From Fibrobacteria bacterium (GTDB taxonomy: Bacteria > Fibrobacterota > Fibrobacteria > UBA11236): a stretch of DNA of 64,000 bases. The notes under the pieces were generated by a model. It searched no databases, was not told the DNA's origin, and saw only the letters and a list, made by a program, of their open reading frames with translations. Of this stretch, positions 1,748-19,169 are shown piece after piece (within the stretch, counting starts at the first letter, position 1; each line of letters begins with the position of its first letter). The stretch is taken from contig DATENA010000068.1 of NCBI GenBank assembly GCA_035275285.1, forward strand, positions 303 through 64,302, read 5' to 3'. Made by a program: the position numbers and the translations under genes.

Positions 1748-2671
1748 ATGGTCCGGATAGCGGCTTGGAATGCAGGGAAACTTTATGCCGACCTATACCG
1801 TCGGCACCGGGCGCAGGTGTACAGGCAGTGCCTGTCCCTGGTCCGGGATCAAGAGGAGGCTTCGCAATTATGCCAGGATGTATTCCTGAACGCCATCCGG
1901 AGCTGGTCCGGGTTCGCGGGGCGTTGCCAGCCGTCCACTTGGCTCATTTCCATCGCCCGCAATGCCTGCCTGCAGCATTTGCGGAGGAAAAAGCTGTACG
2001 CGGCGCGCCTGCAATTGCTTCCCTACCAGGCGACCGGCATGTCCCAGGGCTGCGGCCTTTCCCTGGAGGAAAAGGTCCTCACCGCAGTGCAACTGGGCAG
2101 GACCATGGCCGCTGCGACCCCGGCCACGCGCAGGATCCTCTGGCTCTACTACAAAGAAGGGCTCACCCAACTCGAAATCGCGTCCGTGATGGGCTTGTCC
2201 CGCTCCGCCGTCGGCAAGGTGCTGGCGAAGGTGAACTCCGAATGGTCGCGGGCGCGCCGAAAAGGGCGTCCGGGGAAAGGAACGTCTTTTCCACGTGATC
2301 CTGAACCTCCAGCCGGCGATACAAGATGTCAGGGAGGCCCTTTTCCAGGGGCAATTCCAATTCGCGGAATCGATCCTCAAGCGGCTTTTCGAGGGAACGG
2401 AAAGCGCCAGGGAGATAACGGCCAGGCAACTCGAGAAGGCCGCCCGCGATCGCTGGAAGAAATTCCACCCCTGGCACCTCCACACGGCGGTGGATCCTTT
2501 CCTGGCCTTCCTGCACGCCCATCCGGAAGCGATCCCGGAGACGAGCGTCCAGGGGAGCCGGTTGCAAATCCTGGCGCAAGCGGTGATCCAGAACGGATCG
2601 GAAGGGTCCGATGGGCTGATCCCTTTGCGGGAAGTGGTGGAGGATCTGTACGACGGTTTCCTCAGCGATGA
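1748..2671 (+). CDS. ECF sigma-70 family RNA polymerase sigma factor (true end possibly 2298)
   Basis: Region 2 (LYRRHRAQVYRQC...QDVFLNAIRSWSGFAGRCQPSTWLISIARN) and region 4 (LYYKEGLTQLEIASVMGLSRSAVGKVL). As written, the frame runs 377 nt into the next gene. Confidence 0.85.
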   Translation: MVRIAAWNAGKLYADLYRRHRAQVYRQCLSLVRDQEEASQLCQDVFLNAIRSWSGFAGRCQPSTWLISIARNACLQHLRRKKLYAARLQLLPYQATGMSQGCGLSLEEKVLTAVQLGRTMAAATPATRRILWLYYKEGLTQLEIASVMGLSRSAVGKVLAKVNSEWSRARRKGRPGKGTSFPRDPEPPAGDTRCQGGPFPGAIPIRGIDPQAAFRGNGKRQGDNGQATREGRPRSLEEIPPLAPPHGGGSFPGLPARPSGSDPGDERPGEPVANPGASGDPERIGRVRWADPFAGSGGGSVRRFPQR

Positions 2672-3767
2672 TTTCCGGGAACGGATCAAAGGCCCGATGC
2701 GCGGCAGCGGCTTGATGCCGCCGCTGGTGGAATGGACTTTGGCCCCGGATATGCGCCCGTTCACCTTGGACGAAAGGCGGCTGAAGAAGCTGGGCGTCCA
2801 TTGCGGCGTCATCGGCATGCCGAGGTCTTTCTCGCGGGGCGGGCTCCTGGTATGGGCCTCCCTGGCGCATGAAGTGTGCGGGCATGCGGTGCTGAACGCG
2901 TACCCCGGGGCGCTGGATCCCGTCCGCGCGGAAGTGAACGCCGCCCTGAAGCGGAGGTTCGCCGCGGGTCCCGCCGCCCAGCTTCCCGAATATTGGGACC
3001 GGTGCTTCGAAGAGGCGGCCGCGGACTGCCTGGGAATATTGCGGCTGGGACCGGCCATGGCCGTGGGGTTCATCGGCGCCTTCCGGAGCGGGCGCGCTTT
3101 CCTGGCGGAAAGGAACGGCGCCGCGTCGCTCTCGCCCGGGCTGGGCCGGGAGGATTACGATCGCCACCACCCTTCGGACCTGTTCCGGGCCTTGTTGATG
3201 ACTTCCCTGTGCGGCCGCCTGGCCTTCCGGAAAAGGCAGGAATGGAAAAGGATCCTCATGGCGGAGATCGCCAAGGACTTCGGACCGGCCGCGCCGGGCG
3301 GCATCCCTTGGGAGGACGTCCGGGAGTCGACGGAAATATTCGCCGGATCGTTCCTGGATACGCCCATGGAAAGCTTCTCCGGGCTCTCCATGGGCCGCCT
3401 GCGCAATTGGAGCGACTGGGACGAAGCGACCGCGGCCGCAACGCAGTCCCTGATCGCGATGGAACGGAGGGAAGCCTCCGCCCAGCGGCCCACCGGCCTC
3501 CACGCCACCCACGCGCTCGCCGCCGCCATCCTCCTGGCGGCCTCCGACGGGAACCGGATCCGGATCCCCGTCCTGTTCCGCAGGCTGATGAGCCTGCTCA
3601 AATCCATCCACGCCGAGAAACGGCCGGCCCCGTCGCCCATCGTCCCGGTGCGCGCGCGGCTCAAGCCGGAAAGGAGCGGACCATGTAGCACCCGAACGGA
3701 CCCAAACCGGAAGAAAAACGGAAAAAGACACCGACATCATTCATCATGTAGGCAAATCAAGGAGTAA
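2295..3767 (+). CDS. Uncharacterised zincin-like protein with HExxGH motif (putative metallopeptidase/hydrolase)
   Basis: HEVCGH at 2868-2885 and EEAAAD at 3009-3026; GTG start. Activity is inferred from the motifs only. Confidence 0.7.
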   Translation: MILNLQPAIQDVREALFQGQFQFAESILKRLFEGTESAREITARQLEKAARDRWKKFHPWHLHTAVDPFLAFLHAHPEAIPETSVQGSRLQILAQAVIQNGSEGSDGLIPLREVVEDLYDGFLSDDFRERIKGPMRGSGLMPPLVEWTLAPDMRPFTLDERRLKKLGVHCGVIGMPRSFSRGGLLVWASLAHEVCGHAVLNAYPGALDPVRAEVNAALKRRFAAGPAAQLPEYWDRCFEEAAADCLGILRLGPAMAVGFIGAFRSGRAFLAERNGAASLSPGLGREDYDRHHPSDLFRALLMTSLCGRLAFRKRQEWKRILMAEIAKDFGPAAPGGIPWEDVRESTEIFAGSFLDTPMESFSGLSMGRLRNWSDWDEATAAATQSLIAMERREASAQRPTGLHATHALAAAILLAASDGNRIRIPVLFRRLMSLLKSIHAEKRPAPSPIVPVRARLKPERSGPCSTRTDPNRKKNGKRHRHHSSCRQIKE

Positions 3768-3772
3768 GCATC

Positions 3773-3994
3773 ATGTCCAAGCTCATCTCATTCGCGAACG
3801 ACATCTTGAACTCGGAATCCCTCCAGAAGGATTTCATGCAGGACCCGGAACAGGTCATGAAGGCCCGCGGGCTCTCGGGCGAACAGATCGCCATGCTCAA
3901 GGATAGGAAGAAGACGAACGCCATCAAGGCGATCACCGAAGAGCTCAATTCCTATGAAAAGGTGCTGAAGAACACCCATCGGAATTCCTGGTAG
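3773..3994 (+). CDS. 73-aa peptide with LigA-like/borosin-binding-domain leader and C-terminal Trp; putative RiPP precursor
   Basis: Strong AAGGAG RBS at 3759-3764. Leader pattern F..D....DFMQDPEQVMKARGLSGEQI; short tail ending NSW. The ORF is well supported; the precursor role is inference. Confidence 0.75.
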   Translation: MSKLISFANDILNSESLQKDFMQDPEQVMKARGLSGEQIAMLKDRKKTNAIKAITEELNSYEKVLKNTHRNSW

Positions 3995-4044: not shown

Positions 4045-5103
4045 ATGCGCATGCCCTGGCCGATTGAAAACACTTTCGAACTGCTGCGGGCGGACGCGCC
4101 GGACGAACTCACGCCGGGCGATTCCCTGGCCCGGATGCAAGCCCATCTGAAACGGCTTCCTCCGGGCTCTTCTTCCTATTTCCTGGAATGCAGGCTCGCC
4201 AAGGACGACGACCGGGTCGATTTCGGCGCCTGCTTCCGGTCGCCGCTGGATTCCGCCACCGCCCCGGCCGGAAAGCCGGGCTTCGCGGCGCCTTCCGGGA
4301 ACCGCCCCGAGGACAAGGCCTGGGAGCCCGTGAACCGGGCCTTCTCCCTGTGGGCCTCCCGGACCTCCGGACTGCGGAACCGCGTCCCCTACATCTGGAT
4401 TGAAATGGACCAGGCCGGCCCGCAGCCGGGGGCCGCCGTCCCCGGCTTCCTGTTCTGCGTCGACCCCTCCCTGGCCCGCGTCCCGGAACGTTTCCAAGCC
4501 GGACCGGACGGCCGAAAGGACTTGCTCGCCATCGCCCGGGAAATCGAAAAGGCGCTGTTCGGATCCGGACTCCCGGCCGGGTGCGGCAAGACGTTATGGG
4601 ACTGCCTGACCGCGCTGCCGGCCGAAGGCCGCATCCTGCACATCTCGGCGATGCCGTCCCGGTCTCCGGCCGCCCTCAAACTGAACATCTGCATGCCCAA
4701 GAAAGCTTTGTTCGGGTTCCTGAGGCGCATCCGCTGGCCCGGATCCCCCGCGGAGCTGGAAAAACTTTGGGAGGCGTTCCATCCGTTCATGAGCTGCGCC
4801 AAGATCGATCTGGAAATCAGCGCCGGCGTGTCCCCGCGCCTCGGCTTGGAACTGCATCCCTACAATACGCCGAGAACGGCGCGGAAAGCGGCCCTCCTGC
4901 GCCTGGCCCGCTCCGGAAGCGCCCAGCCCCGCAAGGCCCGCGCCCTGGCGGCCTGGTGCGGCAACGTCACGCGCATGTTTCCCGGGCATCGCTGGCCCAC
5001 GCACATGGTCAAGGAATTCGGGCTCAAGCTCGTATTCGCGGAAACGCGGCCCCTGCAGGCCAAGGGGTACCTGGGGTATTATCCGATCTTCTCCCTGCGC
5101 TGA
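4045..5103 (+). CDS. Putative PT-barrel (ABBA-type) aromatic/peptide prenyltransferase-like protein
   Basis: Motif order FLECRL..VDF, WIEMD, ISAMPSR, RWPGS, KIDLEI...PRLGLE, KLVF...AKGYL matches an uncharacterised family that I associate with the PT-barrel fold. Not confirmed by search. Confidence 0.5.
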   Translation: MRMPWPIENTFELLRADAPDELTPGDSLARMQAHLKRLPPGSSSYFLECRLAKDDDRVDFGACFRSPLDSATAPAGKPGFAAPSGNRPEDKAWEPVNRAFSLWASRTSGLRNRVPYIWIEMDQAGPQPGAAVPGFLFCVDPSLARVPERFQAGPDGRKDLLAIAREIEKALFGSGLPAGCGKTLWDCLTALPAEGRILHISAMPSRSPAALKLNICMPKKALFGFLRRIRWPGSPAELEKLWEAFHPFMSCAKIDLEISAGVSPRLGLELHPYNTPRTARKAALLRLARSGSAQPRKARALAAWCGNVTRMFPGHRWPTHMVKEFGLKLVFAETRPLQAKGYLGYYPIFSLR

Positions 5104-5164: not shown

Positions 5165-7681
5165 ATGATCGACAATAGAGCCTTGGATCCGACGCCGGAA
5201 TGCTTCGAAGCCTGGTTGATGGGCACCAAAGGCGAGAACGCCGAGGAGCTCGAGAACCTGGTCGTGGAGGCCGTACGGGACACGGCGTATTGGAGGCGGC
5301 ACGTTTTCCCCATGGATCCGCGGCATATCACCGAGGAAATGAAGGAATCCCCGGAATTCAAGCGCTCGGTGGTCAGGCTGAGACAGGAATTCCAATCCCT
5401 TCTATCCTATCTGAAGCGATCCGTGCCCGCCTTCAGCATGAGATATCAGGCCCATATGGGCTGGGATCTGCTCCTGCCGGGCATGCTGGGATATTTCGCG
5501 GGGATGTTACATGGATCAAACAACGTCGCGTACGAAGGGGCGCCCGCGACCACGGTGCTGGAATCCATCGCCGCCCAGGACCTGTGCCGGATGCTCGGGT
5601 TCCGGCCCGCGGACGGCTTGCGCCCCTGGGCCCATTTCACCGGAGGCGGGACCCTGTCCAACATCGAGGGGCTTTGGGCGGCCAGGAACGTGAAATTCCT
5701 ACCTTTTGCCGTCAAGGAAACGTTGCAAGCCTTCGAACGGGAATTCCGCGCGAGCGGCGACGTCCACGGACTTGAGAACATGGCCGAAGCCTTGCGTCTG
5801 GAAGTAGCCTGCCGGCGGCCGGGAGAATTCCGGACCAAGAGCGTCCCCTTCGGCGTACTGACCGCTTGGGAGCTTCTCAATATGGGAGTGGATGAAGCCT
5901 TGGCGCTTCCCGCGAGGGTGGGAGCGATCCTGGACGAAGACCCGGCGGGTCCGGTCCGGGAGCGGTTCGATTCGGCCCTGATAGCCAACGATCTGAACTC
6001 CCGGGGGCTGCGCGCCTTTCCCGCGCCCGGCACGGACGGCATAGGGGGCGCGCCGGTAGTGCTCGCCGCCGGCACGCGCCACTTTTCCATCGAAAAGGCC
6101 GCCTGCCTGCTGGGCATGGGGCAGGAGAACGTGCGCAACGTCTTCGTGGACGAATCCGCCCGCATGGACATGGGGCACCTGGACGGGATCCTGGCCGACT
6201 GCCTGGAACGGCGGATCCCGGTGCTGGCCGTGGTGGCGACCCTGGGGACCACGGAAGAAGGCGCGGTGGATCCCCTCAGCGACATCGTGCAGTTGCGGGA
6301 CAAGTACCGCATGCTGGGCCTGGACTTCGCCCTGCACGTGGACGCGGCCTGGGGAGGCTATCATGCCAGCATCCTGCGCGAGGACTTCCCGATGGACGAC
6401 GTGCTCTTCGTGGTGCCCGCCCAGGAGGACGCGCCCGGCGCGGCCAAGCCCAACCTGCAGGATACCTTGGGCGGGGCCAGGGAGGCGGGCACCCCTTCCC
6501 TGGGCCTTTCCCGCTACGCGCGGCTCCAATACGGCGCCCTGCCCCACGCCGATACCGTCACGGTCGATCCCCACAAGCAGGGCCATATCCCGTTCCCCGC
6601 CGGGGCCATCTGCTACCGCAATTCCGCCCTGAGGAACCTGGTGCGCTTCGGAGCGCCTTACCTGGGCGCCCTCGTGCCGCAAGCCATCCGCCAGGCGGAC
6701 GGCGCCACCGATCCCTTCATGGGCATCTACGGCGTGGAAGGCTCCCGGCCCGGCGCCGCAGCGGCCTCGGTGTTCCTGACCCACCGGCTGGTCAGGCCCA
6801 GCAAGAGCGGATACGGCCGCCTGATCGGCATGGAGATGTTCAATTGCAAGAAGGTATTCGCGTTGATCTCGCGCTTGAACCCGGGCGGCGAGGACTGGAT
6901 CGCGGTGACGCTCGCCGGCGCGGCGGGCCGGGAGGAGGCCTGCCTGCGGGCCGACGCCCTGGGGAACGCGGAAGCCGGCCGGGACCCGGAACTGCTGACG
7001 GCCATGGAAGAGATGGGCCCGGACCTGAACATCCTGGCCTACCTCTTCAACTTCAAGGCCGCGAACCGGTTCAACCAGGACCTGGGCCTGCTGGCGGCCT
7101 TCAACCAGGCCATTTACGACAAGATCCGCCTGCGTCCGGAAAGGGAATACGCGGAGCACAAGCTTATCGTCAGCCAGACGCTCCTGCTGGGGAGGAACTA
7201 CGGTCCACGCTTCCTGAACGGCATGCTCGCGCGCCTCAACCTGGGACTGCGGGCCAACCCGGAGAATTGCGGGCATATCAACCTCTTCGCCCTCCGTTCC
7301 ACCGTGGCCAATCCCTGGCTCACGGATACCGTGGAAGGCTCTTTCCTGCCGCATTTCCGGGAGGAACTGCGGGCGGCCGTCCGGCAGGGACTGGAAGAGG
7401 TCCTGATCATACGCAACGTGATGGAGGAGCTCAAGCGGGAACGCAGTCCTTTGCTGGGGGACCCGATGCTGCCGATCCGGCTCGTTCCCTTCGCGCCGGA
7501 CCTGCTGAGGGGAAAGCTCCCGGAGGAATTCGTCCCTCCCGGAGCGGAAGGGGAAGGCTTGCGCGCCGAAGAGCCGTGCACGCACATGGTCCGGACCCTG
7601 CTGCGCCGGGGCCGTGGCGCGCAGGCGGAGGATCTCCCCGGGGAAGCCCTCAGGAAGTTCAACGAGGTCCAGGCCCGATGA
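5165..7681 (+). CDS. Group II PLP-dependent amino-acid decarboxylase, tyrosine decarboxylase-like
   Basis: TyrDC-type N-terminus (LMGTKGENAE...AYWRR), NNVAYEGAPAT, GGTLSNIEGLWAARN, HVDAAWGGY, PLP-lysine motif VTVDPHKQG, GVEGSRPGA. Confidence 0.9.
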   Translation: MIDNRALDPTPECFEAWLMGTKGENAEELENLVVEAVRDTAYWRRHVFPMDPRHITEEMKESPEFKRSVVRLRQEFQSLLSYLKRSVPAFSMRYQAHMGWDLLLPGMLGYFAGMLHGSNNVAYEGAPATTVLESIAAQDLCRMLGFRPADGLRPWAHFTGGGTLSNIEGLWAARNVKFLPFAVKETLQAFEREFRASGDVHGLENMAEALRLEVACRRPGEFRTKSVPFGVLTAWELLNMGVDEALALPARVGAILDEDPAGPVRERFDSALIANDLNSRGLRAFPAPGTDGIGGAPVVLAAGTRHFSIEKAACLLGMGQENVRNVFVDESARMDMGHLDGILADCLERRIPVLAVVATLGTTEEGAVDPLSDIVQLRDKYRMLGLDFALHVDAAWGGYHASILREDFPMDDVLFVVPAQEDAPGAAKPNLQDTLGGAREAGTPSLGLSRYARLQYGALPHADTVTVDPHKQGHIPFPAGAICYRNSALRNLVRFGAPYLGALVPQAIRQADGATDPFMGIYGVEGSRPGAAAASVFLTHRLVRPSKSGYGRLIGMEMFNCKKVFALISRLNPGGEDWIAVTLAGAAGREEACLRADALGNAEAGRDPELLTAMEEMGPDLNILAYLFNFKAANRFNQDLGLLAAFNQAIYDKIRLRPEREYAEHKLIVSQTLLLGRNYGPRFLNGMLARLNLGLRANPENCGHINLFALRSTVANPWLTDTVEGSFLPHFREELRAAVRQGLEEVLIIRNVMEELKRERSPLLGDPMLPIRLVPFAPDLLRGKLPEEFVPPGAEGEGLRAEEPCTHMVRTLLRRGRGAQAEDLPGEALRKFNEVQAR

Positions 7682-10600
7682 CCGAACCCCGGGACGGCTA
7701 CAAGGTGTTCGATACCGTGCGGGACGGAAGGTCGACCCTGCTGGTCCGTTGCGTGCGCGTGCGCGACAACCGGCGGGTGATGCTGCGGATCCCCAAACCC
7801 GACCACCCGGGCGGCGAAGGGCTGCGCGGCCTCCGCAATGAGTTCGAGATCACCCAGGGCCTGGACGTCCCCGGCGTCCTCAGGGCCATGGAGATCGATC
7901 GCAACGGCCGGATGCCGGCGCTGGTGCTGGAGGATTTCGACGGGATGACCGCGCGCCAATCCCTGGGCAACCGCGCCATGGAAACGGAGAGCTTCCTGCG
8001 CTTCGCTTTGCAGTTGACGGAGATCCTGGCGGGCGTGCACTCCCAGGGCGTGGTCCACGGGGGATTGAACCCGTCCTGCATCCTCCTGTCCCGGAGCGAC
8101 GGCACGGTGAGGTTGACCGGGTTCGATCAGGCGTTCGGACCGGTGCCGAGGCAGGCTTCGATCACCTGGGACGGGGAACCGGGGGACAACCTGGCCTACA
8201 TCTCCCCGGAACAGACCGGCCGGTTCGAGGGCCTGGTGGATCACCGCACGGATCTCTACTCCCTGGGCATCCTCTGGTATGAAATGCTGGTGGGCATGGC
8301 TCCCGTCCAGAGCGAGGACGAGGGCGAAATCGTGGCCTTCCACCTGGCCCTGGAGGCCGTGCCGCCCTGCGAGCGGAACCCCGCCGTGCCCAGGATCCTT
8401 TCGGATATCGTGATGAAGCTCATTTCAAAGTCCGCCGACCAGCGCTACGCCAGCGCCCGCACCCTCAAGGCCGATCTGGAGCGGTGCCTGTGGGGCCTGG
8501 AGAATTTCCGGACCATCGAGCCGTTCCCGCTGGGCCAGGGGGATCTGCCCGAACGCTTCCCCTATCCGCAAAAGCTTTACGGACGCGAGCAGGAGATCCG
8601 CAGGCTGGTGCAGGGCTTCCAGCGTTCCCTGGACGGCGGCCGGGAACTGATCCTGATCTCGGGACCGGCCGGAGCGGGGAAGTCCTCCCTGGTCCAGGAG
8701 CTCCGGTTCCACGTGGGCAGCAAAGGCGGCTATTTCTCGGCGGGCAAATCGGACCCGCTCTCGCGGGAACTCCCCTATAGCGCCGTCACCCAGGCCTTCC
8801 GGGGCCTCATCCAGCAGATCCTGACCGAGAGCGAGGAGCGCCTGGCCGGTTGGCGCAACGATCTGCGGGAAACCCTGGGCGCTTCCGCCCGCATGCTGGC
8901 CGACGTGGTGCCCGAACTGGACCTGCTGATCGGGAAGCCCCCCGGCATGGCCGGCCCGGGACCGGCCGAGGCCCAGGGCCGGATGCATTTCACCTTCCTG
9001 GCCTTCTTCTCCGTATTCGCCAAGCGGGGATACCCTTTGGTCCTGTTCCTGGACGACCTGCATTGGTCCGACGTGGCGTCCCTGGACCTGATCAAGGCCA
9101 TCTTCTCCATCGATTCGGATTCCCGGCCCATGGTCATCGGCGCGTACCGGGAGAACGAGGTGGGCCAGGGGCACGCCTTGTCGGCCATGATCCGGGATCT
9201 CCGGAAAAAAAAGGTGCCCATCTCCACCATCCCGGTCCACCCGCTCCCGGTCGGATCCCTCAACCGATACCTGGCGGACCTGTTCCGGTGCCGGCCGGAA
9301 CACAGCCTGGACCTGGCCATGGCCGTGCACGGGAAAACCGACGGCAATCCTTTTTTCGTGATCGAATTCCTGAAGGCGATCCAGGGAGAAGGCCTCCTCA
9401 TCGCCCCTTCCGGTCCCGCCGGACGGGAAGACTTTCCCATCCGGCGGGACCGATGGCATTGGAATCTGCAAGGCATCCGGAAAATGCGCATCACGGAGAA
9501 CGTGATCGATCTGATCGTCAACCGGCTGCGGGCCCTGTCCCCGGAAACGCAGCGTTCCCTGGCGCTGTGCGCCTGCCTGGGAGGGAGGTTCGACCTGGAG
9601 GACCTGGTCCTGCTCGACGACAGGCCGGAGGCGGTGGTCTTCGCCGGCCTCGCCAAGCCCGTGGAAGAAGGCTGGCTGGTCCCCGAATCGGAGACGGGCT
9701 TCGCGTTCCAGCACGATCGCATCCGGCAATCCGCCTATGCCTTGCTCTCGCCCGCGGAGAAGGCGGCGACCCATCTCCGCATCGGCAGGGCCCAATTGGA
9801 TCAGGCGCGCCCGGAGGCCCTCGACGATTCCGTGTTCGAAATCGCCGGGCACCTCAACCGGGGCTGGACCGCGGGAGCGACGGAAGCCGAACGGCGCCTC
9901 TATGCGGACATCAACCTGCGCGCCGCCCGCAAAGCCGTGGCCGCGGCCGCCTTTTCGGAGGCATTGGTCTACTTCGGGGCCGCCATCGACTTGCTGGGCC
10001 CGGGGAAAAACGCGGCCGGGATGGCCTACCCCTTGTTCCTGGGAAAAGGGGAATGCGAATACCTCAACGCGGATTTCGCGGTGGCCAGGGCCAGCTTCGC
10101 CAAGGCCATGGAGGTGGCCGAGACGCCGCTGGAAAAGGCGTCGGTGTTCGCCGCCCGGGCCCGCATGAGCGAGCACGCTCTCGACCATGCCGCCACGCTC
10201 GAGGACGGCATCCGGGGGCTGCGCATGCTGGGCATAAGCATGCCCGCCTCGCCCGGCAAGGCCCGGCTGGCGTTGGAACTGCTGCGCGTCCTGGCGGCCA
10301 AGGGCCTGCGCGGACCCGCGGAACTGGCCCGCATCCCCGATCGCTGGACGCCGGAGGCGGCGGCCGGCATGGGCCTGCTGACCAACCTCTGGTCCATGGC
10401 CTTCCTGACCGCGAACACATCGCTGCAAGGGATGGTGGTGCTGAAGATGCTGCTGGGAAGCCTGCGTTACGGGAACTCGGACGTTTCCGCGGTGGCGTAC
10501 GCCTGCTACGGCGTGCTCCTCTTCTCCGTATTCAGGAGGGCCGGGGTCGGGGAATCCTACTGCCGCATGGCCATGAGGCTCGCGGAAAGGTATCCCAACC

Positions 10601-12678
10601 CTTCCGCCAAGGGCAAGGTCTACTTCATCTACGCCTCTTTCTTCAGCCCTTACAACCATTCCCATCAGCGGACCCTGGAATACCTCCGGGAAGCCTTCCG
10701 CCATTGCATGGAGGGCGGGGACCCCGTCTATGCCGGATACTGCAACGACGTGGTGCTCTACATCATGCCGTTCTCCAGCTTCACCTTGGAAGACATCGAA
10801 GCGGAGGCGGACCGGATCGCCGGTTTCGCCTCGGGCACCGAGAACAAAGGCAACGCGGAAACCCTCCTGGTGGCGCGCAGATGGATGGACCTGTTGCGCA
10901 GCGATGCGTCCACCTGCCTCGCCCGCCTGGAGGAAGGGCGGACGTTCGAAGATCAACTTACGGATCCGATGGAAAAAGGCTATTTCCAGATGCTGGAGAT
11001 CCAGATGCTGGTGCTCTTCCGGCGCTACGGCGAGGCGCTTCGCGTCTCGGAGCGGCTGCGCGGGTGCCCCATCATCGATCCCGCGGGAGGTTTCCGGCCC
11101 TTCTATTGTTTCCACCGCGTGCTCATCCTGTCCGCCCTCCACGACGTGCTGCCGCGGAAGGAAAGGGGAAAGCGGCGCCGGGAGATGATCGGCCACCGGG
11201 ACCGGCTGGGAAGCTGGGCGCGGCGGAGCCTGGAGGGTTTCAGCCATATGCATGCCTTGGCCGAGGCGGAAATCCGCAAGCTCGACGGGGACATGGCCGG
11301 AGCGCAGGCGCAATATGCCCGTTCCCTGGCCTGCGCCCGCGCGCAAGGGTACCTGCAATTCGCCGCCCTGGCCGCGGAAATGGCGGGACGCCTGCATTCG
11401 GAATGCGGGGATCCGGCCAAGAGCAAGGAGTTCCTGCGCGATGCGTACCACGGCTATCTCGCCTGGGGGGCCCCGGCCAAGGCCCAGGAACTCGCGGCTT
11501 CCCATCCCGGCGTGGTGAACGTAAAACCGTTCCGCGTCCCGGCGGATCCGCCCGATCGGGACGGCAACGGGAGCGCGCTCGCGTCCTGGCTCCGGCCCCT
11601 GGACCTGAAAGCGATCCTGAAAGCCTGCCAGGCCATGTCCGGCGAGCTGGCCATGAGCAAGCTTCCCCGGAAACTGCTGCGCATCATCCTGGAAAACGCG
11701 GGCGCGCAAAGGGGCGCCCTTCTCCTGGAGAAGAAGGGCCGCCTGATGGTGGAGGCGCTGGAGAGCCTGGACCAGGAGGGGTCCGAACCTTTCCAAGCGG
11801 TACCGGTGGAGGAGTGCGGGGAATTGTCCGCGGCCATCGTGCACTACGCGGCCAGGACCGCCAAACCCGTGATCCTGGCCGATGCTTCCCGGGAAGGGAT
11901 CTTCACCGGCGACGGGTACGTGCAGGCGCGCAAGCCCAAGTCCGTCCTGTGCATGCCGCTGATGAACCAGGGGAAGACGGGGGGCATGCTGTACCTGGAG
12001 AACAACCGCATCGCGGACGCCTTCACGCCCGACAGGCTGGAAGTGATGGAAGTACTGTGCGGCCAGGCCGTGGTCTCGCTCGCGAACGCGGGTTTCCACG
12101 CCATGCAGATGGAGCTGCTGCAGGGGAAGATCAAACCGCATTTCCTGTTCAACGCCCTCAATTCCATCGCCCATCTGACCAAGCTCGATCCGGGCAACGC
12201 CGAGGAAGCCATCCTGCAGCTCTCCCACCTCTACCGGTACATCCTGGCCGCCTCGGAAAACAAAATGGTGAAGCTCAGCCAGGAATTGGAAATCATCAAG
12301 GCCTACCTCTTCATAGAGAAAATGCGCTTCCAGGACAAGCTTGAATTCTCCATCGTCACGGAAGGCGACATCGACAGCGTCACCATCCCGGGCCTCATCA
12401 TCCAGCCCCTGGTCGAGAACAGCATCCGGCACGGCGTCTCCCCGAAAATCGGCGGGGGCAAGGTGACGGTCCGCGCCGAGATCGGGGACTCGATCTGCCG
12501 CATCACGGTGGAGGACGACGGCGTGGGCTGGGGCAAATCCCATCCGGGGGGCGCGGGCTACGGCCTCAAGAGCATCCAGGAGCGGCTGCACCTGGTCTTC
12601 GGCAACGAATATTCCTTCGGCATCCGGCGGGAGGGCGGCGTCCTGGTGGAGTTCTCCTTTCCGGTGGCCAGGCCCTGA
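7678..12678 (+). CDS. Hybrid sensor: Ser/Thr kinase-like + AAA ATPase + helical region + GAF + LytS-type His kinase/HATPase (1666 aa)
   Basis: ATGA overlap with the upstream stop. Kinase fold with YISPEQTGR and DLYSLG; Walker A GPAGAGKS; Walker B LFLDDLHW; GAF (SVLCMPL...LYLEN); H-box KPHFLFNALNSI; QPLVENSIRHG; GYGLKSIQERL. Confidence 0.92.
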   Translation: MTEPRDGYKVFDTVRDGRSTLLVRCVRVRDNRRVMLRIPKPDHPGGEGLRGLRNEFEITQGLDVPGVLRAMEIDRNGRMPALVLEDFDGMTARQSLGNRAMETESFLRFALQLTEILAGVHSQGVVHGGLNPSCILLSRSDGTVRLTGFDQAFGPVPRQASITWDGEPGDNLAYISPEQTGRFEGLVDHRTDLYSLGILWYEMLVGMAPVQSEDEGEIVAFHLALEAVPPCERNPAVPRILSDIVMKLISKSADQRYASARTLKADLERCLWGLENFRTIEPFPLGQGDLPERFPYPQKLYGREQEIRRLVQGFQRSLDGGRELILISGPAGAGKSSLVQELRFHVGSKGGYFSAGKSDPLSRELPYSAVTQAFRGLIQQILTESEERLAGWRNDLRETLGASARMLADVVPELDLLIGKPPGMAGPGPAEAQGRMHFTFLAFFSVFAKRGYPLVLFLDDLHWSDVASLDLIKAIFSIDSDSRPMVIGAYRENEVGQGHALSAMIRDLRKKKVPISTIPVHPLPVGSLNRYLADLFRCRPEHSLDLAMAVHGKTDGNPFFVIEFLKAIQGEGLLIAPSGPAGREDFPIRRDRWHWNLQGIRKMRITENVIDLIVNRLRALSPETQRSLALCACLGGRFDLEDLVLLDDRPEAVVFAGLAKPVEEGWLVPESETGFAFQHDRIRQSAYALLSPAEKAATHLRIGRAQLDQARPEALDDSVFEIAGHLNRGWTAGATEAERRLYADINLRAARKAVAAAAFSEALVYFGAAIDLLGPGKNAAGMAYPLFLGKGECEYLNADFAVARASFAKAMEVAETPLEKASVFAARARMSEHALDHAATLEDGIRGLRMLGISMPASPGKARLALELLRVLAAKGLRGPAELARIPDRWTPEAAAGMGLLTNLWSMAFLTANTSLQGMVVLKMLLGSLRYGNSDVSAVAYACYGVLLFSVFRRAGVGESYCRMAMRLAERYPNPSAKGKVYFIYASFFSPYNHSHQRTLEYLREAFRHCMEGGDPVYAGYCNDVVLYIMPFSSFTLEDIEAEADRIAGFASGTENKGNAETLLVARRWMDLLRSDASTCLARLEEGRTFEDQLTDPMEKGYFQMLEIQMLVLFRRYGEALRVSERLRGCPIIDPAGGFRPFYCFHRVLILSALHDVLPRKERGKRRREMIGHRDRLGSWARRSLEGFSHMHALAEAEIRKLDGDMAGAQAQYARSLACARAQGYLQFAALAAEMAGRLHSECGDPAKSKEFLRDAYHGYLAWGAPAKAQELAASHPGVVNVKPFRVPADPPDRDGNGSALASWLRPLDLKAILKACQAMSGELAMSKLPRKLLRIILENAGAQRGALLLEKKGRLMVEALESLDQEGSEPFQAVPVEECGELSAAIVHYAARTAKPVILADASREGIFTGDGYVQARKPKSVLCMPLMNQGKTGGMLYLENNRIADAFTPDRLEVMEVLCGQAVVSLANAGFHAMQMELLQGKIKPHFLFNALNSIAHLTKLDPGNAEEAILQLSHLYRYILAASENKMVKLSQELEIIKAYLFIEKMRFQDKLEFSIVTEGDIDSVTIPGLIIQPLVENSIRHGVSPKIGGGKVTVRAEIGDSICRITVEDDGVGWGKSHPGGAGYGLKSIQERLHLVFGNEYSFGIRREGGVLVEFSFPVARP

Positions 12679-13457
12679 TGGTCTACCGCACCTTGATCGT
12701 CGAAGACGAGAAGAACGCCCGGGACCGGCTGCGCAGCCTCCTGAAAGGATGGGAAGAGCTGATTGAAGTGATCGGGGAAGCGGAGAACGGGCCCGAAGCC
12801 ATCCGCAAAATCAAGGAGATGGACCCGGACCTGATCTTCCTGGACATCAAGATGCCGGGCATGGACGGGTTCGACGTCATCCAGAACCTCGAAAAGCAGC
12901 CCATCATCATCTTCACCACCGCTTACGATGAGCACGCCCTGGAAGCCTTCTCCACCAACGCCATCGGCTATCTGCTCAAGCCCGTGAGCCACGAGGACAT
13001 CGGCAGGACGTTCAAGAAGCTGATGAACCTGGAAAAGCAGGTGTCGGAAAAGAGCCACCGGGGCGACCGGGACAAGCGCAGCGACGAGACCGTCCTGTCC
13101 CTGGTCCGGGAACTGCTCGTGCCCCAGTACCAGAACATCATCTCCTGCAAGGTAGGGGACAAGCTCCAGTTCATCAAGACCCCGGAGATCCTCTATTTCA
13201 AATCCGACAACCGCTCCACCTTCCTGTTCACCAGCACGGGCAAGAAATTCATCGTGGACGCGCCCTTGATCGAAATGGAGAAACGGGTCAACCCCAAGGA
13301 ATTCATCCGCATCCGCCGGGGGACCATCGTGAACCTCGCCTGGATATCCGAGATCCGCAGGACGTACAACGGAAGGCTCAAGGTCATCCTGATGGACAAG
13401 CAAGGGACCGAGCTGGAAGTCAGCCGGGGATACGTGGACGCGCTCAAGGCGTTCTAG
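12678..13457 (+). CDS. LytTR-family DNA-binding response regulator
   Basis: Receiver (IVEDE, IFLDIKMP, FTTAYD, YLLKP) plus LytTR domain (FIRIRRGTIVNL, EVSRGY). TGATG overlap with the kinase gene. Confidence 0.95.
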   Translation: MVYRTLIVEDEKNARDRLRSLLKGWEELIEVIGEAENGPEAIRKIKEMDPDLIFLDIKMPGMDGFDVIQNLEKQPIIIFTTAYDEHALEAFSTNAIGYLLKPVSHEDIGRTFKKLMNLEKQVSEKSHRGDRDKRSDETVLSLVRELLVPQYQNIISCKVGDKLQFIKTPEILYFKSDNRSTFLFTSTGKKFIVDAPLIEMEKRVNPKEFIRIRRGTIVNLAWISEIRRTYNGRLKVILMDKQGTELEVSRGYVDALKAF

Positions 13458-13484: not shown

Positions 13485-13725
13485 AGTGGATCTCTGCAGA
13501 ATTCCTCGCCCGCCCCCCTCCGGGCGCGCGCATTGCCGTTACCCTGGCCCACAGAGCATCCACCCCAGGTCCGCTTGGGTTTCTTGAGCCTTTGAAAAGC
13601 GGGAATCCGCGGTGGGAAAAACCCGCCGGCAGGTTCATTTTTCCTTTTCGGCCTGCTTTTTCCGGGCCATGAGGATATTTTGGAAAGGTATTCGCATCGA
13701 GGGTTCATCGGGGGGAAGCAGCGTC

Positions 13726-16700
13726 ATGAAAAGCGTCAAGCTGGGATTTTTCTTTTTGGTCATTTTGCTGGTCAAGCATGCGGCCGCGCAGCAGATCATT
13801 TTCAAGCCGCCGCGCCCCACCAACATCTGGAAAGCGGACACGCTGTACATCGGCGCCTCTTTTACGCGCAACTCCTTCGATCCGGTTTCCGTCTGGCTCA
13901 TCGGCAATCAAGCCGGCTGGGTGGGAAGCCTGTATTTCATCGTGCCCAAGACGAACGAAGAGGTCTTTCTCTTCACCAACAAGGGCACCACGAACGTGCG
14001 CAACGTCCTGAGCGACAAGTACGATATCCCCGTAGGCGATACCGTGTACTTCCTCTACAAGGTGACACAGCCCGCAAAGGACAATAACCCGAGCGAAGCC
14101 AGCCGCCTGCCCAAATACACGGGCCCCAACATCCCGGGCGAAAGCAAATTCGTCACCCAGCCCGCCAGCGCGGCCTACGGCCACCGCTGGTCCGTGGCCG
14201 GCCGCGTCAACGACAGCATCGTGCAATTCGGGTTCGAGGACAACGTCAACCCCGCGGGGGACACCCACCCTTCGGACATGGACTTCGACGACATCGTGTT
14301 CGGCACCACCCTGTCGCTGGCCAGCGAAGAAGTGCAGCCGCACATCTCCTTCACGGACAAGGCGGGGAACATCCTGGCCCCCGGAGCCTTCTATTCCCCC
14401 GAGAACGACACCATCTACGTCACCTACACGGATGACTATGTCCGGGCCAACCTGTCCAAGGACATCGTATTCAACGTCAGGAACCGCAACGACCTGGCCG
14501 CAGCGGACCTGGACACCTTCTCGGTGGTCTCCGTTTCCCATAACGGCGCCGTGGGTACTTGGAAGCTGAAGGTTCCCATCCAGGAGAAGCCGGGCATTCC
14601 GGGGGACAAGCTCCTGCAATCCTTCTTCCTGGGCGAGGTGACGGCCACCGTCAAGACCCACAACCGTTTAGGCGCGCCGGACAACAATTCCGTATCGGCC
14701 AACCTCAAGGTGGCCTATCCGGACAAACCCGAAACCGTTACGATCCTGAACTGCGCCGATTCGGCCGCGGACATCGTCCGCACCACCAACTGCATCCGGA
14801 TCAAGGCCGGGGACCAGAGCTTCACCCGCGGCCAGGACACCGTCTGGGCGGAAGTGAAATGCGACGGCTCCGGGGACATCATCGGCAAAGTGCCCTTGAT
14901 CGAACAGACCGGGGGCGGATACGTTTCCGGGAACATCGTGAAGAACGAGACCAATCCGCCGGTCAGCGATCAAATCCTCTCCTGCAAATCGAGCGACAAC
15001 GTCACGGTCACCTACGTGGACGAAGTGTACAACAACCGCGTCACGGACAAGAAGACCTTCAGCGGCAATGCCGCGGAAGGCTTCACCTACGTGGAAACCG
15101 CGGCCCCCGGCACCGTGATCACCCAGATCACGGACGGCGCCGCCCCCACCTTCACCGCCGTCGTCAAGGCGCCCACCCCCACCGTGGACGTGGTCGATCA
15201 GATCAACGTGGTGATGACCAGTTCCCAAGGGGACATCGAAACCTTCAAAGCCACGGAAACCGGGCCCAATACCGGCGTCTTCACCGTGGACATCCCCTAT
15301 GGGTTCCAGACCATCCCGGTCGTTTCCGGTTCCGGCAAGGTCGACGGGTTCCTGGATCCCACCCAGACCGTCACAGGCGTGGCCGTGACGGGCGTGGCCA
15401 CCGTCAACAATAAGGAATACACGGCGGCCATCACCCTGAAGCCCGCTTTGAACGCGGTCAAGAATGCCTATATCAAGGACGTGGACGGCGACGGCCGCGG
15501 GGACAAGGTGTACATCGTGTTCAGCCGCCCCCTGGAAGCCTTGCCCGCCACCCTGACGCCCACCTATTGGAACGTCGGCGGGGATCCGAACTTCGACAAT
15601 GCCGCCCCTCCGGTCCTCTCCCTCCTGGACGGCGCGCTCAACACCCTGGTGGCGGATTTCTCCGCCGCTCCTTTCCCCAAGGGGGCCACCTCCATCCCGG
15701 CCACCGCCCAGAAGCCCTATGCCACGCTCCCCGGCGACCCCATCTTCGGCGGCCAGAAGCCCGTCATCGCGGACTCCATGGGACCCATCATCGTGGCGGC
15801 GGTCATCAAGCCTTTCAACAACCTCACGGTGGTGGCCGGCAGCACCGAGCTGAACGTGGACACCCTCCGGATCACCCTTTCCGAAAGCATCAAGACCCAG
15901 GGGGGCATGCAGGGCCTGCTCCGGTTCTCCAAGACCGTCAACGGCGCATGCACGGATTACGCCCATTCCGTGCCCGTGGTCCCCAATGCGGAACCCACCA
16001 TCAACCCCGACGGTTCCTACACCTTCCTGATCGCCGCCGGCAAGGGCCCTTCGCCCCTGGCCGGGGATTGCGTGTACGTCAATGTGAACGGAACCTATAC
16101 GGATCTGTTCGGCAACCTCCCTCCCGAGCACGGCGAACCCATCCAGGGTCCCAAGCCGGCCCGGGAGATCGAGCTGTTCCGCGGTTATCCTCCCGTCGCC
16201 GGCATGAATCCCAGTTCGCCCGGGTTCGTGGTGGTCAACAACGATCCCCAGTCCGATCTCGGCAGCGAATATTCCACCAAGTCGGGCGCGGGATACCAGA
16301 CCAAATGGGTCCCTCCGGCGGACTTCCCCACCGGCGCGTACGATGCGGTGAAGAACCCCTACGTTCCCGTGATTCCCGGAGCGATTACGGCCCCGGTGGA
16401 GCCGGGCAAGGATGCCGGGACTTTCTCCGTCATGCCTCCGGGCATCAGCACGGTCCAGGTCATTTCCACGGGCGAATACATCGCCGACGTGGCCATCTTC
16501 GACAACCTGGGGAATTTCGTCAAGAGCTTCAAGCAAGCCTTCGGATACCGCGGGGAGCTGAACAACCAGGAACGCGCCGCCAAGCGCGGCCTGGTCAGCT
16601 ACCTGGTCTGGGATCTGCGGAACAACAGTGGCCAGAAGGCCGGGCAGGGTGTCTACGTATGGAAGGTGGTGTTCCGCTTCAAGGCAGGCAAGCAGGAAAT

Positions 16701-16734
16701 CCGCTACACCCGTACGGGCGTCATGAGAAACTAG
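13726..16734 (+). CDS. Large secreted Fibrobacterota-type protein with DUF4114-like motif and T9SS/FlgD-like C-terminal domain
   Basis: Sec signal (MKSVKLGFFFLVILLVKHAAA), GFEDN...DMDFDDIVF, AYIKDVDGDGRGD, C-terminal IFDNLGNFV...WDLRNNSGQKAGQGVYVWKV. Confidence 0.8.
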   Translation: MKSVKLGFFFLVILLVKHAAAQQIIFKPPRPTNIWKADTLYIGASFTRNSFDPVSVWLIGNQAGWVGSLYFIVPKTNEEVFLFTNKGTTNVRNVLSDKYDIPVGDTVYFLYKVTQPAKDNNPSEASRLPKYTGPNIPGESKFVTQPASAAYGHRWSVAGRVNDSIVQFGFEDNVNPAGDTHPSDMDFDDIVFGTTLSLASEEVQPHISFTDKAGNILAPGAFYSPENDTIYVTYTDDYVRANLSKDIVFNVRNRNDLAAADLDTFSVVSVSHNGAVGTWKLKVPIQEKPGIPGDKLLQSFFLGEVTATVKTHNRLGAPDNNSVSANLKVAYPDKPETVTILNCADSAADIVRTTNCIRIKAGDQSFTRGQDTVWAEVKCDGSGDIIGKVPLIEQTGGGYVSGNIVKNETNPPVSDQILSCKSSDNVTVTYVDEVYNNRVTDKKTFSGNAAEGFTYVETAAPGTVITQITDGAAPTFTAVVKAPTPTVDVVDQINVVMTSSQGDIETFKATETGPNTGVFTVDIPYGFQTIPVVSGSGKVDGFLDPTQTVTGVAVTGVATVNNKEYTAAITLKPALNAVKNAYIKDVDGDGRGDKVYIVFSRPLEALPATLTPTYWNVGGDPNFDNAAPPVLSLLDGALNTLVADFSAAPFPKGATSIPATAQKPYATLPGDPIFGGQKPVIADSMGPIIVAAVIKPFNNLTVVAGSTELNVDTLRITLSESIKTQGGMQGLLRFSKTVNGACTDYAHSVPVVPNAEPTINPDGSYTFLIAAGKGPSPLAGDCVYVNVNGTYTDLFGNLPPEHGEPIQGPKPAREIELFRGYPPVAGMNPSSPGFVVVNNDPQSDLGSEYSTKSGAGYQTKWVPPADFPTGAYDAVKNPYVPVIPGAITAPVEPGKDAGTFSVMPPGISTVQVISTGEYIADVAIFDNLGNFVKSFKQAFGYRGELNNQERAAKRGLVSYLVWDLRNNSGQKAGQGVYVWKVVFRFKAGKQEIRYTRTGVMRN

Positions 16735-18329: not shown

Positions 18330-19169
18330 ATGAGCCCGGAAAAACCGGAACCGGAAATCCTGCACTACTCCAATTACCGGACGTACCTGCAGGACTATTA
18401 CGAGTACAAGAAGGCCGAACAGCCGGTCTTTTCGCACCGTTATTTCGCCCGGAAGGCGGGGATCACCAGCCCGAACTATCTGAAGCTGGTCATGGACGGA
18501 AAGCGGAACCTCACCAAGAAGACCCTGTTGAAATTCGCCACCGCCTTGGGGCTCAAAGGAATGCGCGCCGAATTTTTCGAGAATTTGGTATTTTTCAACC
18601 AATCGGCCTCCCTTCCCGAGCGGAACAGCTACTACGGGAACATTCTCAGGGTGCGCGCGAAAGCCGGATTGCGGAAACTGGACGAGGCCCAGTTCCAATT
18701 GTTCTCGGACTGGCGGCACATCGTCGTCCGGGAATTGGCGGCGGCGAAGGGCTTCCGGCCGGATGCGCGCTGGATAGCCAAGAAGCTGGGCAAGGTCATT
18801 TCCGAGAAGGAGGCGGAGGAATCCTTGAAGCTGCTGTCCATCCTGGGCCTGCTCAGGAAAACCGCCAACGGGTTCATGCAGACGGACATCAACATCACCA
18901 CCTCCGATGAAGTGCGCTCGCTCCTCGTCAAGAACTACCACCACCAGATGATCCGCATGGGCGCGGCGGCTCTGGACACCCTGCCGGCCTCCCGGCGGGA
19001 CATCTCGTCCATCACCATCCCCATCCATCCCAAGGATTTCCCCAAGCTCAAGGAGCAGATCCAACTGATGCGCAAGGAACTATTCAACATGAGTGCCGAA
19101 CAGGGCGCCGGCGAAGACGTCATCCAGGTGAACATCCAGCTCTTCCCCCTCACCGGGCTCCAGGGTTAG
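18330..19169 (+). CDS. TIGR02147 family protein (HTH + DUF4423-like domain)
   Basis: YSNYRTYLQDYYE...FSHRYFARKAGITSPNYLKLVMDGKRNLT, W.H.VVREL, YHHQMI, RRDISSITI, QVNIQLFPL. Confidence 0.92.
   Translation: MSPEKPEPEILHYSNYRTYLQDYYEYKKAEQPVFSHRYFARKAGITSPNYLKLVMDGKRNLTKKTLLKFATALGLKGMRAEFFENLVFFNQSASLPERNSYYGNILRVRAKAGLRKLDEAQFQLFSDWRHIVVRELAAAKGFRPDARWIAKKLGKVISEKEAEESLKLLSILGLLRKTANGFMQTDINITTSDEVRSLLVKNYHHQMIRMGAAALDTLPASRRDISSITIPIHPKDFPKLKEQIQLMRKELFNMSAEQGAGEDVIQVNIQLFPLTGLQG

Follow-up and report, generated by a model that had tools for sequence, protein, structure and literature searches.

A PLP-dependent decarboxylase with a clade-specific C-terminal extension in a bacterial operon encoding a Trp-ended peptide, a prenyltransferase-fold protein, and a sensor

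Results

The ORF at 5165-7681 (+ strand) of the window (the whole 64,000-nucleotide stretch of DNA analyzed here) runs for 838 codons with no interruption and is preceded by an AGGA-type ribosome-binding site ∼9 nt 5′ of its start. It is co-oriented and tightly spaced with genes for a HExxGH protein, a Trp-ended peptide, and a prenyltransferase-fold protein. The HExxGH gene (2295..3767, +) encodes a 490-aa putative metallohydrolase, assigned by its motif; no Pfam or NCBIfam family matched it, and its Atlas matches were confined to unnamed clusters with weak M48, U49, and zincin leads. It shares 36% identity with a syntenic 539-aa protein at the same-genus locus L003, where HETCGH aligns with its HEVCGH. 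The small ORF that follows (3773..3994, +) has an AAGGAG ribosome-binding site, and its 73-aa translation ends in ...HRNSW, with Trp at the C terminus. Counterparts lie at L003 (16331-16549, − strand, ending ...NEWFW), where the match is weak (30% over the N-terminal 37 aa, tblastn E 0.047), and at L093 (9651-9887, − strand, ending ...AIGW).

The gene directly upstream of the decarboxylase (4045..5103, +) had been called a prenyltransferase in a preliminary description of this DNA, and the predicted structure of its 352-aa product agrees. There was no match for this protein in Pfam or NCBIfam. Its AF2 model (pLDDT 84.9, pTM 0.87) has the ABBA aromatic prenyltransferase fold; Foldseek matched it with probability 1.00 to PriB, IptA, 5-DMATS, and CloQ, all top matches being ABBA prenyltransferases, and VIA aligned 277-307 residues with MpnD, CymD, PriB, and IptA at Z 16-17. 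The protein is 41% identical to its syntenic L003 counterpart, and E120, R206, K328, K340, and Y342 are conserved columns of alignment A2.

On the other side of the decarboxylase lies a gene for a 1666-aa soluble sensor (7678..12678, +), in which Pfam domains delineate a degenerate Ser/Thr kinase, AAA_16 (STAND), helical repeats, GAF, a LytS-type His_kinase, and HATPase_c. The ATG of the sensor overlaps the TGA of the decarboxylase (ATGA), which constitutes translational coupling, in line with the earlier mention of a coupled sensor. The sensor is 45% identical to the syntenic L003 protein and 31% identical to the neighbor at a metagenome locus, L084. A LytTR-type response regulator, recognized by profile (12678..13457, +), overlaps the sensor stop codon, and a terminator-like hairpin is found 3′ of it at 13564-13579. 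As the preliminary description had stated, there is no amino acid/amine antiporter alongside: the window's 64.5-kb contig has no match to AA_permease_2 (PF13520), the two matches in the genome being on other contigs, and no transporters were found among the scanned neighbors within ∼20 kb of the decarboxylase. Its view that the operon is biosynthetic rather than devoted to acid resistance also holds: the context, with its prenyltransferase-fold and sensor neighbors, is a biosynthetic or signaling one.

Pfam PF00282 matched the 838-aa product with 73.5 bits (cut-off 27), and a Pfam profile search found this gene to be the only PF00282 gene in the genome. The TyrDC C-terminal domain, PF21391, gave a weak match over residues 617-741 (23.3 bits, cut-off 27.2). 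By profile, alignment, and AF2 model, we assign the product to the noncanonical aromatic amino acid decarboxylase (ncAAAD)/long TyrDC-like family and conclude from its sequence that it is a PLP (vitamin B6)-dependent group II amino-acid decarboxylase. The best solved relative by sequence was 6EBN (PcncAAAD from Psilocybe cubensis; E 5.6e-102 over residues 12-683), followed by the TyrDC structures 7CWX and 5HSI (E about 1e-67), with other characterized groups at 1e-18 or weaker; the models for the group II decarboxylases PanP, DABA, and GAD gave weaker but real matches. Structural comparison of the AF2 model (pLDDT 84.4) also put 6EBN at the top in Foldseek (E 4e-45, TM 0.72, 30% identity), and TyrDC reached a TM of 0.86 when normalized by target length, with 26% identity. 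The label "TyrDC-like" in the preliminary description was thus right about the fold and about group II membership, but it does not extend to orthology, since the TIGR03811 equivalog model for Enterococcus TyrDC scored 273.4 bits, under its cut-off of 905.3, and 6EBN is closest. The decarboxylase is nearer to the mushroom noncanonical enzyme than to TyrDC of lactic acid bacteria, of which it is no orthologue, and is a member of a broad, uncharacterized bacterial family of ∼740-aa proteins, for which the fungal PcncAAAD is the closest structure solved. We found no enzymology for bacterial members of this family in the literature that could be searched, and aromatic specificity is therefore extrapolated from PcncAAAD of the fungus and TyrDC of Firmicutes, to which identity is 26-30%.

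Every catalytic element that we checked is there. Lys471 of the DPHK motif (codon 6575..6577, +), the PLP Schiff-base lysine, aligns with the DPHK of 6EBN and 7CWX and does not vary in either alignment A1 or A3; Asp393 (HVDAAWGG, the pyridine-N-binding Asp) and His157 (PLP stacking) are, among others, also invariant columns, invariance having been judged on 14- and 61-sequence alignments plus 6EBN and 7CWX. Tyr499 aligns with Tyr471 of PcncAAAD, and Val121/Ala122 align with Val131/Ala132; in PcncAAAD these are, respectively, the catalytic-loop Tyr and residues of the rim helix that lines the aromatic pocket (PMC13062060). Directly after Tyr499 the alignment reveals an insert of ∼10 residues (LGALVPQAIRQ; 6659..6694, +, together with Tyr499), which is confined to the clade defined by the C-terminal tail described below and is conserved there. 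The catalytic loop (residues 495-521) is disordered in the AF2 model, and the insert probably tunes loop closure to an unusual substrate. The position of the catalytic-loop Tyr is occupied across the wider family by Val in 58 proteins and Tyr in 25. Tyr is kept in the window protein and in five of the six other tail-clade members, and the same-genus homologue P0004 has Val. The presence of Val in P0004 and its greater frequency in the wider family mean that an amine versus an aldehyde outcome may vary among these enzymes, or that Tyr is not the universal proton donor.

The decarboxylase shares with PcncAAAD a long N-terminal PLP domain, the DPHK lysine, the catalytic-loop Tyr, and the rim-helix Val/Ala, as well as a noncatalytic appendage joined at the same C-terminal point. 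PcncAAAD is calcium-activatable and has a broad aromatic substrate range; its appendage is a domain of ∼300 aa with two β-barrels and Ca2+ sites, is essential for activity, and contributes acidic residues to Ca2+ site A. The window protein does not have this β-barrel domain: its chain ends 120 residues past NPW, and its appendage is ∼90 aa, predicted to be helical and partly disordered, with no homologue detected outside the clade. It differs further in being bacterial, in residing in an operon, and in the ∼10-residue insert after the catalytic Tyr. With the TyrDCs of Enterococcus faecalis and Lactobacillus brevis (7CWX, 5HSI), it shares the fold and the domain order, in which tyr_de_CO2_C is matched weakly and below its cut-off, but it is ∼220 residues longer, through internal inserts and the tail, and has no adjoining Tyr/tyramine antiporter. 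Cyanobacterial family members (for example P0006 and P0008, from Okeania and Oscillatoria) share ∼40% identity in the core and have a C-terminal module at the same position. In contrast to the window protein, which has no Pfam EF-hand match, their module is an EF-hand pair (PF13499), and the proteins belong to separate clades.

The motif FALRSTVANPW spans residues 708-718 and leaves 120 residues to the C terminus, versus ∼30-35 in typical family members of 730-760 aa (alignment A1). The excess is therefore ∼85-90 residues, close to the ∼80 reported earlier, and we delimit the extension, from alignment, AF2, and phmmer, to ∼90 aa at residues ∼749-838 (7409..7678, +). The core and the tail have a GC3 of 0.84 and 0.82, respectively, and codon-position GC is equal across both. 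Modeling of the tail, as had been proposed, yielded helices to residue 758 and at 769-781, then an acidic, Pro-rich linker at 782-803 that is disordered by pLDDT, and finally a helical hairpin at 804-837. In this model the tail resembles a helical hairpin tethered by a linker that is variable and in part disordered. The terminal hairpin (7574..7678, +) carries the motif LPGEALRKF, conserved in the clade as L[PT]xxALxxF. Of the 121 family proteins retrieved, only six have this motif (P0001, P0002, P0004, P0009, P0025, and P0034). These carriers form a single clade with an SH-like support of 100 (FastTree), to which the loop insert is likewise restricted; P0020 (708 aa) is a tail-clade member that does not have the terminal hairpin. 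A word-indexed search with the catalytic loop alone (residues 486-535), run to list the clade, returned nothing useful.

The extension is not routine, its terminal hairpin being found in one clade that is tied to the operon. C-terminal add-ons of other kinds, namely cyanobacterial EF-hands and the fungal β-barrel domain, are borne by other clades, which marks the C terminus as a recurrent attachment point. When 1.84 billion representatives were searched by phmmer with residues 740-838, P0002 (E 7e-5) was the sole match beside one that we take to be compositional, and we rejected the idea that the tail is a widespread domain. The match taken as compositional was a multi-stretch hit to a 1035-aa protein. 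In the wider family, represented by 80 genome loci, nothing matched the query past about residue 766. We also rejected a degenerate EF-hand, as comparison with the EF-hand tails of the cyanobacterial proteins by hhalign yielded a probability of 0.03. An alignment of three tails was poor.

The order HExxGH protein, peptide, prenyltransferase, decarboxylase, sensor, regulator is kept in L003 with protein identities of 36-49%, and the order prenyltransferase, decarboxylase, sensor is also found on the metagenome contig L084, the sole locus found in the metagenome scan. All tail-clade members with readable context lie between a gene of the ABBA prenyltransferase fold and a pseudokinase-STAND-GAF-LytS sensor. 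P0002 is 60% identical to the decarboxylase of the window; a longest contig of 5096 bp is listed both for P0002 and for the prenyltransferase homologue P0123, so the two probably share one contig. Of 201 genomes of the phylum, 7 have the prenyltransferase family and 2 the decarboxylase. In the five other prenyltransferase-bearing genomes, we found neither a PF00282 gene nor a HExxGH homologue, and this joint absence makes the two genes look like a co-inherited add-on. Two of the five (G152 and G099) were examined, and in both the sensor and regulator lie immediately next to the prenyltransferase; G099 also has a peptide with a terminal Trp, in a genome with neither decarboxylase nor HExxGH protein. 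When the operon proteins were searched by tblastn against the 80 wider-family genome loci, the module was found in L003 alone, indicating that the wider family does not share the operon context.

Discussion

We judge it somewhat probable that this protein is an active PLP decarboxylase from a small clade specialized for a peptide–prenyltransferase–sensor operon, and that it takes the Trp of the peptide toward prenyl-tryptamine. The prenyltransferase would alkylate the terminal Trp of the peptide on its indole ring, the HExxGH protein, as a putative peptidase, would then cut that Trp off, and the decarboxylase would turn (prenyl-)tryptophan into (prenyl-)tryptamine and CO2. PLP chemistry requires a free α-amino group, and the decarboxylase would thus act only after Trp release. 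The sensor and regulator, which are co-transcribed, may respond to the resulting amine as their effector or signal. We infer the order prenylate, cleave, decarboxylate from gene content only, and a modified Trp is the most coherent substrate reading of the gene set.

The decarboxylase might instead stand alone and act on free cellular Trp, Tyr, or Phe, forming tryptamine, tyramine, or phenethylamine that is then prenylated or sensed directly, with the peptide unrelated to the substrate. The closest characterized relatives, PcncAAAD and TyrDC, do use free proteinogenic aromatic amino acids (PMC13062060), and PriB, IptA, CymD, and 5-DMATS, the top structural matches of the prenyltransferase, prenylate free Trp or indoles. 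We nevertheless consider this reading unlikely, if a serious one. The decarboxylase strictly co-occurs with the HExxGH protein, and both are missing where prenyltransferase, sensor, and regulator stand alone, as would be expected of a pair that first releases and then decarboxylates the residue. The catalytic-loop insert, conserved and particular to this clade, argues for a nonstandard substrate. A basic, acidic, or branched-chain substrate, with the likeness to aromatic decarboxylases reflecting the fold only, would accommodate the real matches to the PanP, DABA, and GAD models and the modest identity (26-30%) to characterized aromatic enzymes. It is, in our estimation, quite improbable, as the two best characterized groups are both aromatic (E 1e-102 and 1e-67 versus 1e-18 or weaker), the rim-helix Val/Ala pocket residues are conserved, and the gene lies beside those for a Trp-ended peptide and a prenyltransferase fold of the indole type.

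The chemistry could also differ, in that an aldehyde synthase acting by decarboxylation-dependent oxidative deamination would release a product of the indole-acetaldehyde type instead of an amine. Plant AAADs reportedly change chemistry on loss of the catalytic-loop Tyr (Torrens-Spence et al.), and the Val at this position in P0004 and most of the wider family would count in the same direction. So would the latent oxidative deamination of PcncAAAD on kynurenines (PMC13062060). The retention of Tyr in the window protein and nearly all of its clade makes an aldehyde product very improbable here. Finally, a classical TyrDC-type enzyme of acid resistance or proton-motive metabolism, with its antiporter encoded elsewhere, could draw on the two APC-family permease genes on other contigs of the genome. 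We rejected it on the TIGR03811 score, far under the TyrDC equivalog cut-off, and on the lack of a permease on the 64.5-kb contig. The gene also forms part of a regulatory/biosynthetic operon, to which it is coupled in translation, and just 2 of the 201 genomes of the phylum have it, so that such an enzyme is scarcely credible.

In its logic the operon resembles ComQXPA-type prenylated-tryptophan peptide signaling and the PalQ–PalX prenylation of a C-terminal Trp, in that a ribosomally made peptide in which a Trp is key goes together with a prenyltransferase and with a histidine kinase and its response regulator. PalQ illustrates that a C-terminal Trp can serve as a dedicated prenylation site (PMC10853753). 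ComQ and PalQ, however, belong to the isoprene-synthase superfamily, whereas the prenyltransferase of the window operon has the ABBA fold; neither of those systems has the PLP decarboxylase or the HExxGH protein present here, and the sensor differs from theirs in being a soluble pseudokinase-STAND-GAF-LytS hybrid. We tentatively extend the scheme to a route scaffolded on the ribosomal peptide, with prenylated tryptamine as the autoinducer for the coupled sensor and the hairpin tethering the enzyme to the sensor or another operon partner, a combination that we regard as doubtful at present. Were the autoinducer reading true, the amine would belong to a class of bacterial signal not seen before, and no earlier PLP decarboxylase would have worked downstream of a RiPP-type precursor. 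If the route itself is true, adding just two genes, one for a cutter and one for a decarboxylase, would suffice to convert a ComX-like prenylated-peptide module into a small-molecule amine pathway, and a large bacterial family that is related to the ncAAAD of psilocybin mushrooms and has gone unstudied would gain its first functional handle. A decarboxylase taking prenylated tryptophan would also serve the synthesis of substituted tryptamines.

The ∼90-aa tail sits where PcncAAAD has its essential C-terminal domain and the cyanobacterial proteins have their EF-hand pairs. Our best guess for its role is docking or regulation, whether it acts back on the lid of the enzyme itself or on a partner from the operon. 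With several regulatory modules (Ca2+ β-barrels, EF-hands, and a hairpin) attached at one C-terminal point, this family offers a test bed for the control of PLP decarboxylases by appendages.

The decarboxylase belongs to an ncAAAD-like clade

The decarboxylase gene (5165-7681, forward strand) is an uninterrupted 838-codon frame preceded by an AGGA-type ribosome-binding site, and its last 99 codons show the same codon-position GC pattern as the core (GC3 of 0.82 and 0.84, respectively). It is the sole PF00282 gene detected in the window's genome; the protein matches Pfam Pyridoxal_deC (PF00282) at 73.5 bits (cut-off 27), and the Pfam TyrDC C-terminal domain is sub-threshold at 23.3 versus 27.2 bits. 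The FALRSTVANPW motif (residues 708-718) is followed by 120 more residues versus ~30-35 in aligned ordinary family members (730-760 aa), so the excess is ~85-90 residues, in agreement with the roughly 80 reported in the preliminary description.

That description had also assigned the protein to the TyrDC pattern of Enterococcus and Lactobacillus. These TyrDCs are indeed its second-best solved relatives by sequence (~1e-67; all remaining ones are at 1e-18 or weaker), but the label proved too narrow. The Enterococcus-type TyrDC equivalog model gave 273 bits where its cut-off is 905, on which basis we rejected a TyrDC orthologue, and the top solved relative is PcncAAAD, the noncanonical aromatic amino-acid decarboxylase (ncAAAD) of Psilocybe cubensis (PDB 6EBN; E 5.6e-102, residues 12-683). 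The AlphaFold model (pLDDT 84.4, pTM 0.89) gave the same ranking by fold, with 6EBN first (TM 0.72, 30% identity) and TyrDC second (TM 0.86 normalised by target length, 26% identity). The wider family consists of ~730-760-aa proteins, ~40% identical to the query and annotated merely as "decarboxylase", from cyanobacteria, Planctomycetota, Myxococcota, Acidobacteriota, many Proteobacteria and some archaea; no characterisation of a bacterial member turned up in our literature search.

K471 (in DPHK), D393 (in HVDAAWGG) and H157 fall in invariant alignment columns, and Y499 and V121/A122 align with the catalytic Tyr471 and the pocket residues Val131/Ala132 of PcncAAAD (PMC13062060). With these catalytic elements intact, it is reasonable to read the protein as an active enzyme whose pocket is aromatic or hydrophobic, an extrapolation from relatives at 26-30% identity. 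We conclude that the decarboxylase is a member of an ncAAAD-like clade whose interest comes mainly from the pathway it appears to complete.

The decarboxylase looks like an add-on to a prenyltransferase-sensor unit

The operon lies on the forward strand and begins with an HExxGH protein, a putative metallohydrolase (2295-3767), followed by a 73-aa ORF ending ...HRNSW with an AAGGAG site (3773-3994), a 352-aa protein (4045-5103) and the decarboxylase. The ATG of a 1666-aa sensor (7678-12678) overlaps the decarboxylase TGA (ATGA), and a LytTR response regulator overlaps the sensor stop and precedes a terminator-like hairpin. The 64.5-kb contig has no gene for an APC-type permease (PF13520), in line with the missing antiporter first described; both PF13520 matches in the genome are located on other contigs. 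The biosynthetic context of the gene holds. The 352-aa protein has no sequence-family match in Pfam or NCBIfam, and its model (pLDDT 85) is an ABBA prenyltransferase barrel. VIA comparison with the indole prenyltransferases MpnD, CymD, PriB and IptA gave Z of 16-17 over ~290 residues, and all top Foldseek matches belong to the ABBA prenyltransferase family; therefore, the earlier label "prenyltransferase" is right at the fold level.

The sensor contains Pkinase, AAA_16, GAF, LytS-type His_kinase and HATPase_c domains. Canonical kinases carry a VAIK-type Lys, HRDLKP and DFG, and the corresponding sensor motifs read VMLR, HGGLNP and GFD; by these degenerate motifs, the sensor probably joins a pseudokinase to AAA_16, GAF and LytS-type histidine kinase domains. 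The sensor homologue of L084, a metagenome contig, aligns from the AAA_16 part onward only.

Among 201 genomes of the phylum, the decarboxylase occurs in two: the window's own and one same-genus MAG labelled Fibrobacteres. The syntenic locus of the latter, L003, keeps the full order (HExxGH protein, peptide, prenyltransferase, decarboxylase, sensor, regulator) at protein identities of just 36-49%; its small ORF, at the matching position, ends ...NEWFW and gives a weak tblastn match (30% identity, 37 residues, E 0.047). L084 has the order prenyltransferase, tail-bearing decarboxylase (P0025), sensor. The longest contig listed for both the decarboxylase homologue P0002 and the prenyltransferase homologue P0123 is 5096 bp, so the two are probably on one contig.

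The prenyltransferase family is found in seven of the 201 genomes, and across their whole genomes the five extra ones (90-100% complete) have neither a PF00282 decarboxylase nor an HExxGH homologue. We examined two of these five, at loci L092 (8716-15186) and L093; in both, a similar sensor and the LytTR regulator come directly after the prenyltransferase-fold gene. Of the four loci examined, three have a Trp-ended peptide: L093 encodes a 78-aa peptide ending ...AIGW 5' of the prenyltransferase (9651-9887, reverse strand), and none was found in L092. From these decarboxylase-free loci we conclude that the core unit is prenyltransferase, sensor and regulator, and that the decarboxylase and HExxGH protein appear to be a co-inherited add-on.

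We propose that the prenyltransferase would modify the peptide's terminal Trp, that the HExxGH enzyme would release the modified Trp, and that the decarboxylase would act last, forming (prenyl-)tryptamine. The argument for this order is chemical: the alpha-amino group of a PLP decarboxylase's substrate has to be free to form the external aldimine, which peptide-bound Trp cannot do, and we infer that decarboxylation comes last. A need for prior release would also explain the joint inheritance of cutter and decarboxylase. That the amine product feeds the adjacent sensor is speculation drawn from conserved adjacency and the ATGA coupling.

Several observations concern the flanks. A sigma-70 family ORF (1532-2671), in which regions 2 and 4 are complete by about residue 233 and ~125 further codons follow, overlaps the HExxGH gene start by 376 nt in another frame, leaving the sigma end or the HExxGH start uncertain; a sigma-factor gene also lies upstream of the prenyltransferase in L092. 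Directly 3' of the hairpin is a 1040-aa ORF (13612-16734) with no Pfam match, not conserved beside the module in L003. Among the genes further 3' (18330-19169, 19914-20798 and 22728-23792) are those for a DUF4423 protein, which belongs to a Fibrobacter-type family, for an extradiol dioxygenase of the LigB type and for a protein resembling intradiol dioxygenases; we found no evident link between these genes and the operon.

The C-terminal tail is confined to one clade

In the predicted model, the final core helix extends to residue 758 and is followed by a helix (769-781, pLDDT ~90), a disordered, acidic/proline-rich linker (782-803, pLDDT 53-60) and a helical hairpin (804-820 and 824-837, pLDDT 67-84). 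A phmmer search of 1.84 billion representative proteins with residues 740-838 as the query returned P0002 (60% identical, E 7e-5) as the only credible match; one further match was multi-stretch and regarded as compositional. In tail alignments made with MAFFT and by eye, conservation is confined to the final ~35 residues, which consist of an amphipathic helix together with the terminal motif L-[PT]-x-x-A-L-x-x-F. This motif occurs in 6 of 121 retrieved family proteins (P0001, P0002, P0004, P0009, P0025 and P0034), which together with P0020, as retrieved lacking the terminal hairpin, form one clade (SH-like support 100) on a long branch from the other 63 sequences in the tree. In the wider family, no match to the query extends past about residue 766 in any of 80 genome loci. 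Extensions of this kind are therefore not routine in homologues from unrelated contexts, and the tie between tail and operon holds in the clade members with readable gene context.

Across the wider family, the C terminus is a recurrent attachment point for different modules. A cyanobacterial clade bears an EF-hand pair there (P0006, P0008, P0011, P0012, P0018, P0019, P0022, P0026 and P0055), which suggests Ca2+ control arisen independently of the fungal Ca2+-activated enzyme. A decayed EF-hand as the origin of the tail studied here was rejected (hhalign probability 0.03). In PcncAAAD, the C terminus bears a beta-barrel domain of ~300 aa that binds Ca2+ and is essential (PMC13062060); each enzyme has a noncatalytic appendage at the corresponding position, the bacterial tail occupying the place of the fungal activity-controlling domain. 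This position, and a conserved hairpin predicted on a variable, partly disordered tether, suggest that the tail could be a docking or regulatory element, directed either at a partner or at the decarboxylase to which it belongs.

The tail clade has an altered catalytic loop

All tail-clade members share a 10-residue insert (consensus L-G-x-[IV]-V-P-Q-[GA]-I-x-Q) directly after the catalytic-loop Tyr position, within the loop that closes over substrate (residues 495-521, disordered in the model). Thirteen further positions, e.g., F89A, C160G and P310E, set the clade apart from 75 other family members. As sequence features, the insert and these positions indicate a probable change in substrate or in regulation. 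Among family proteins with a readable motif, 58 have Val at the catalytic-loop Tyr position and 25 have Tyr; the same-genus homologue P0004 (L003, 12814-15273, reverse strand) has Val. Because Val replaces Tyr in P0004 and most of the wider family, some members may produce aldehydes or use another proton donor.
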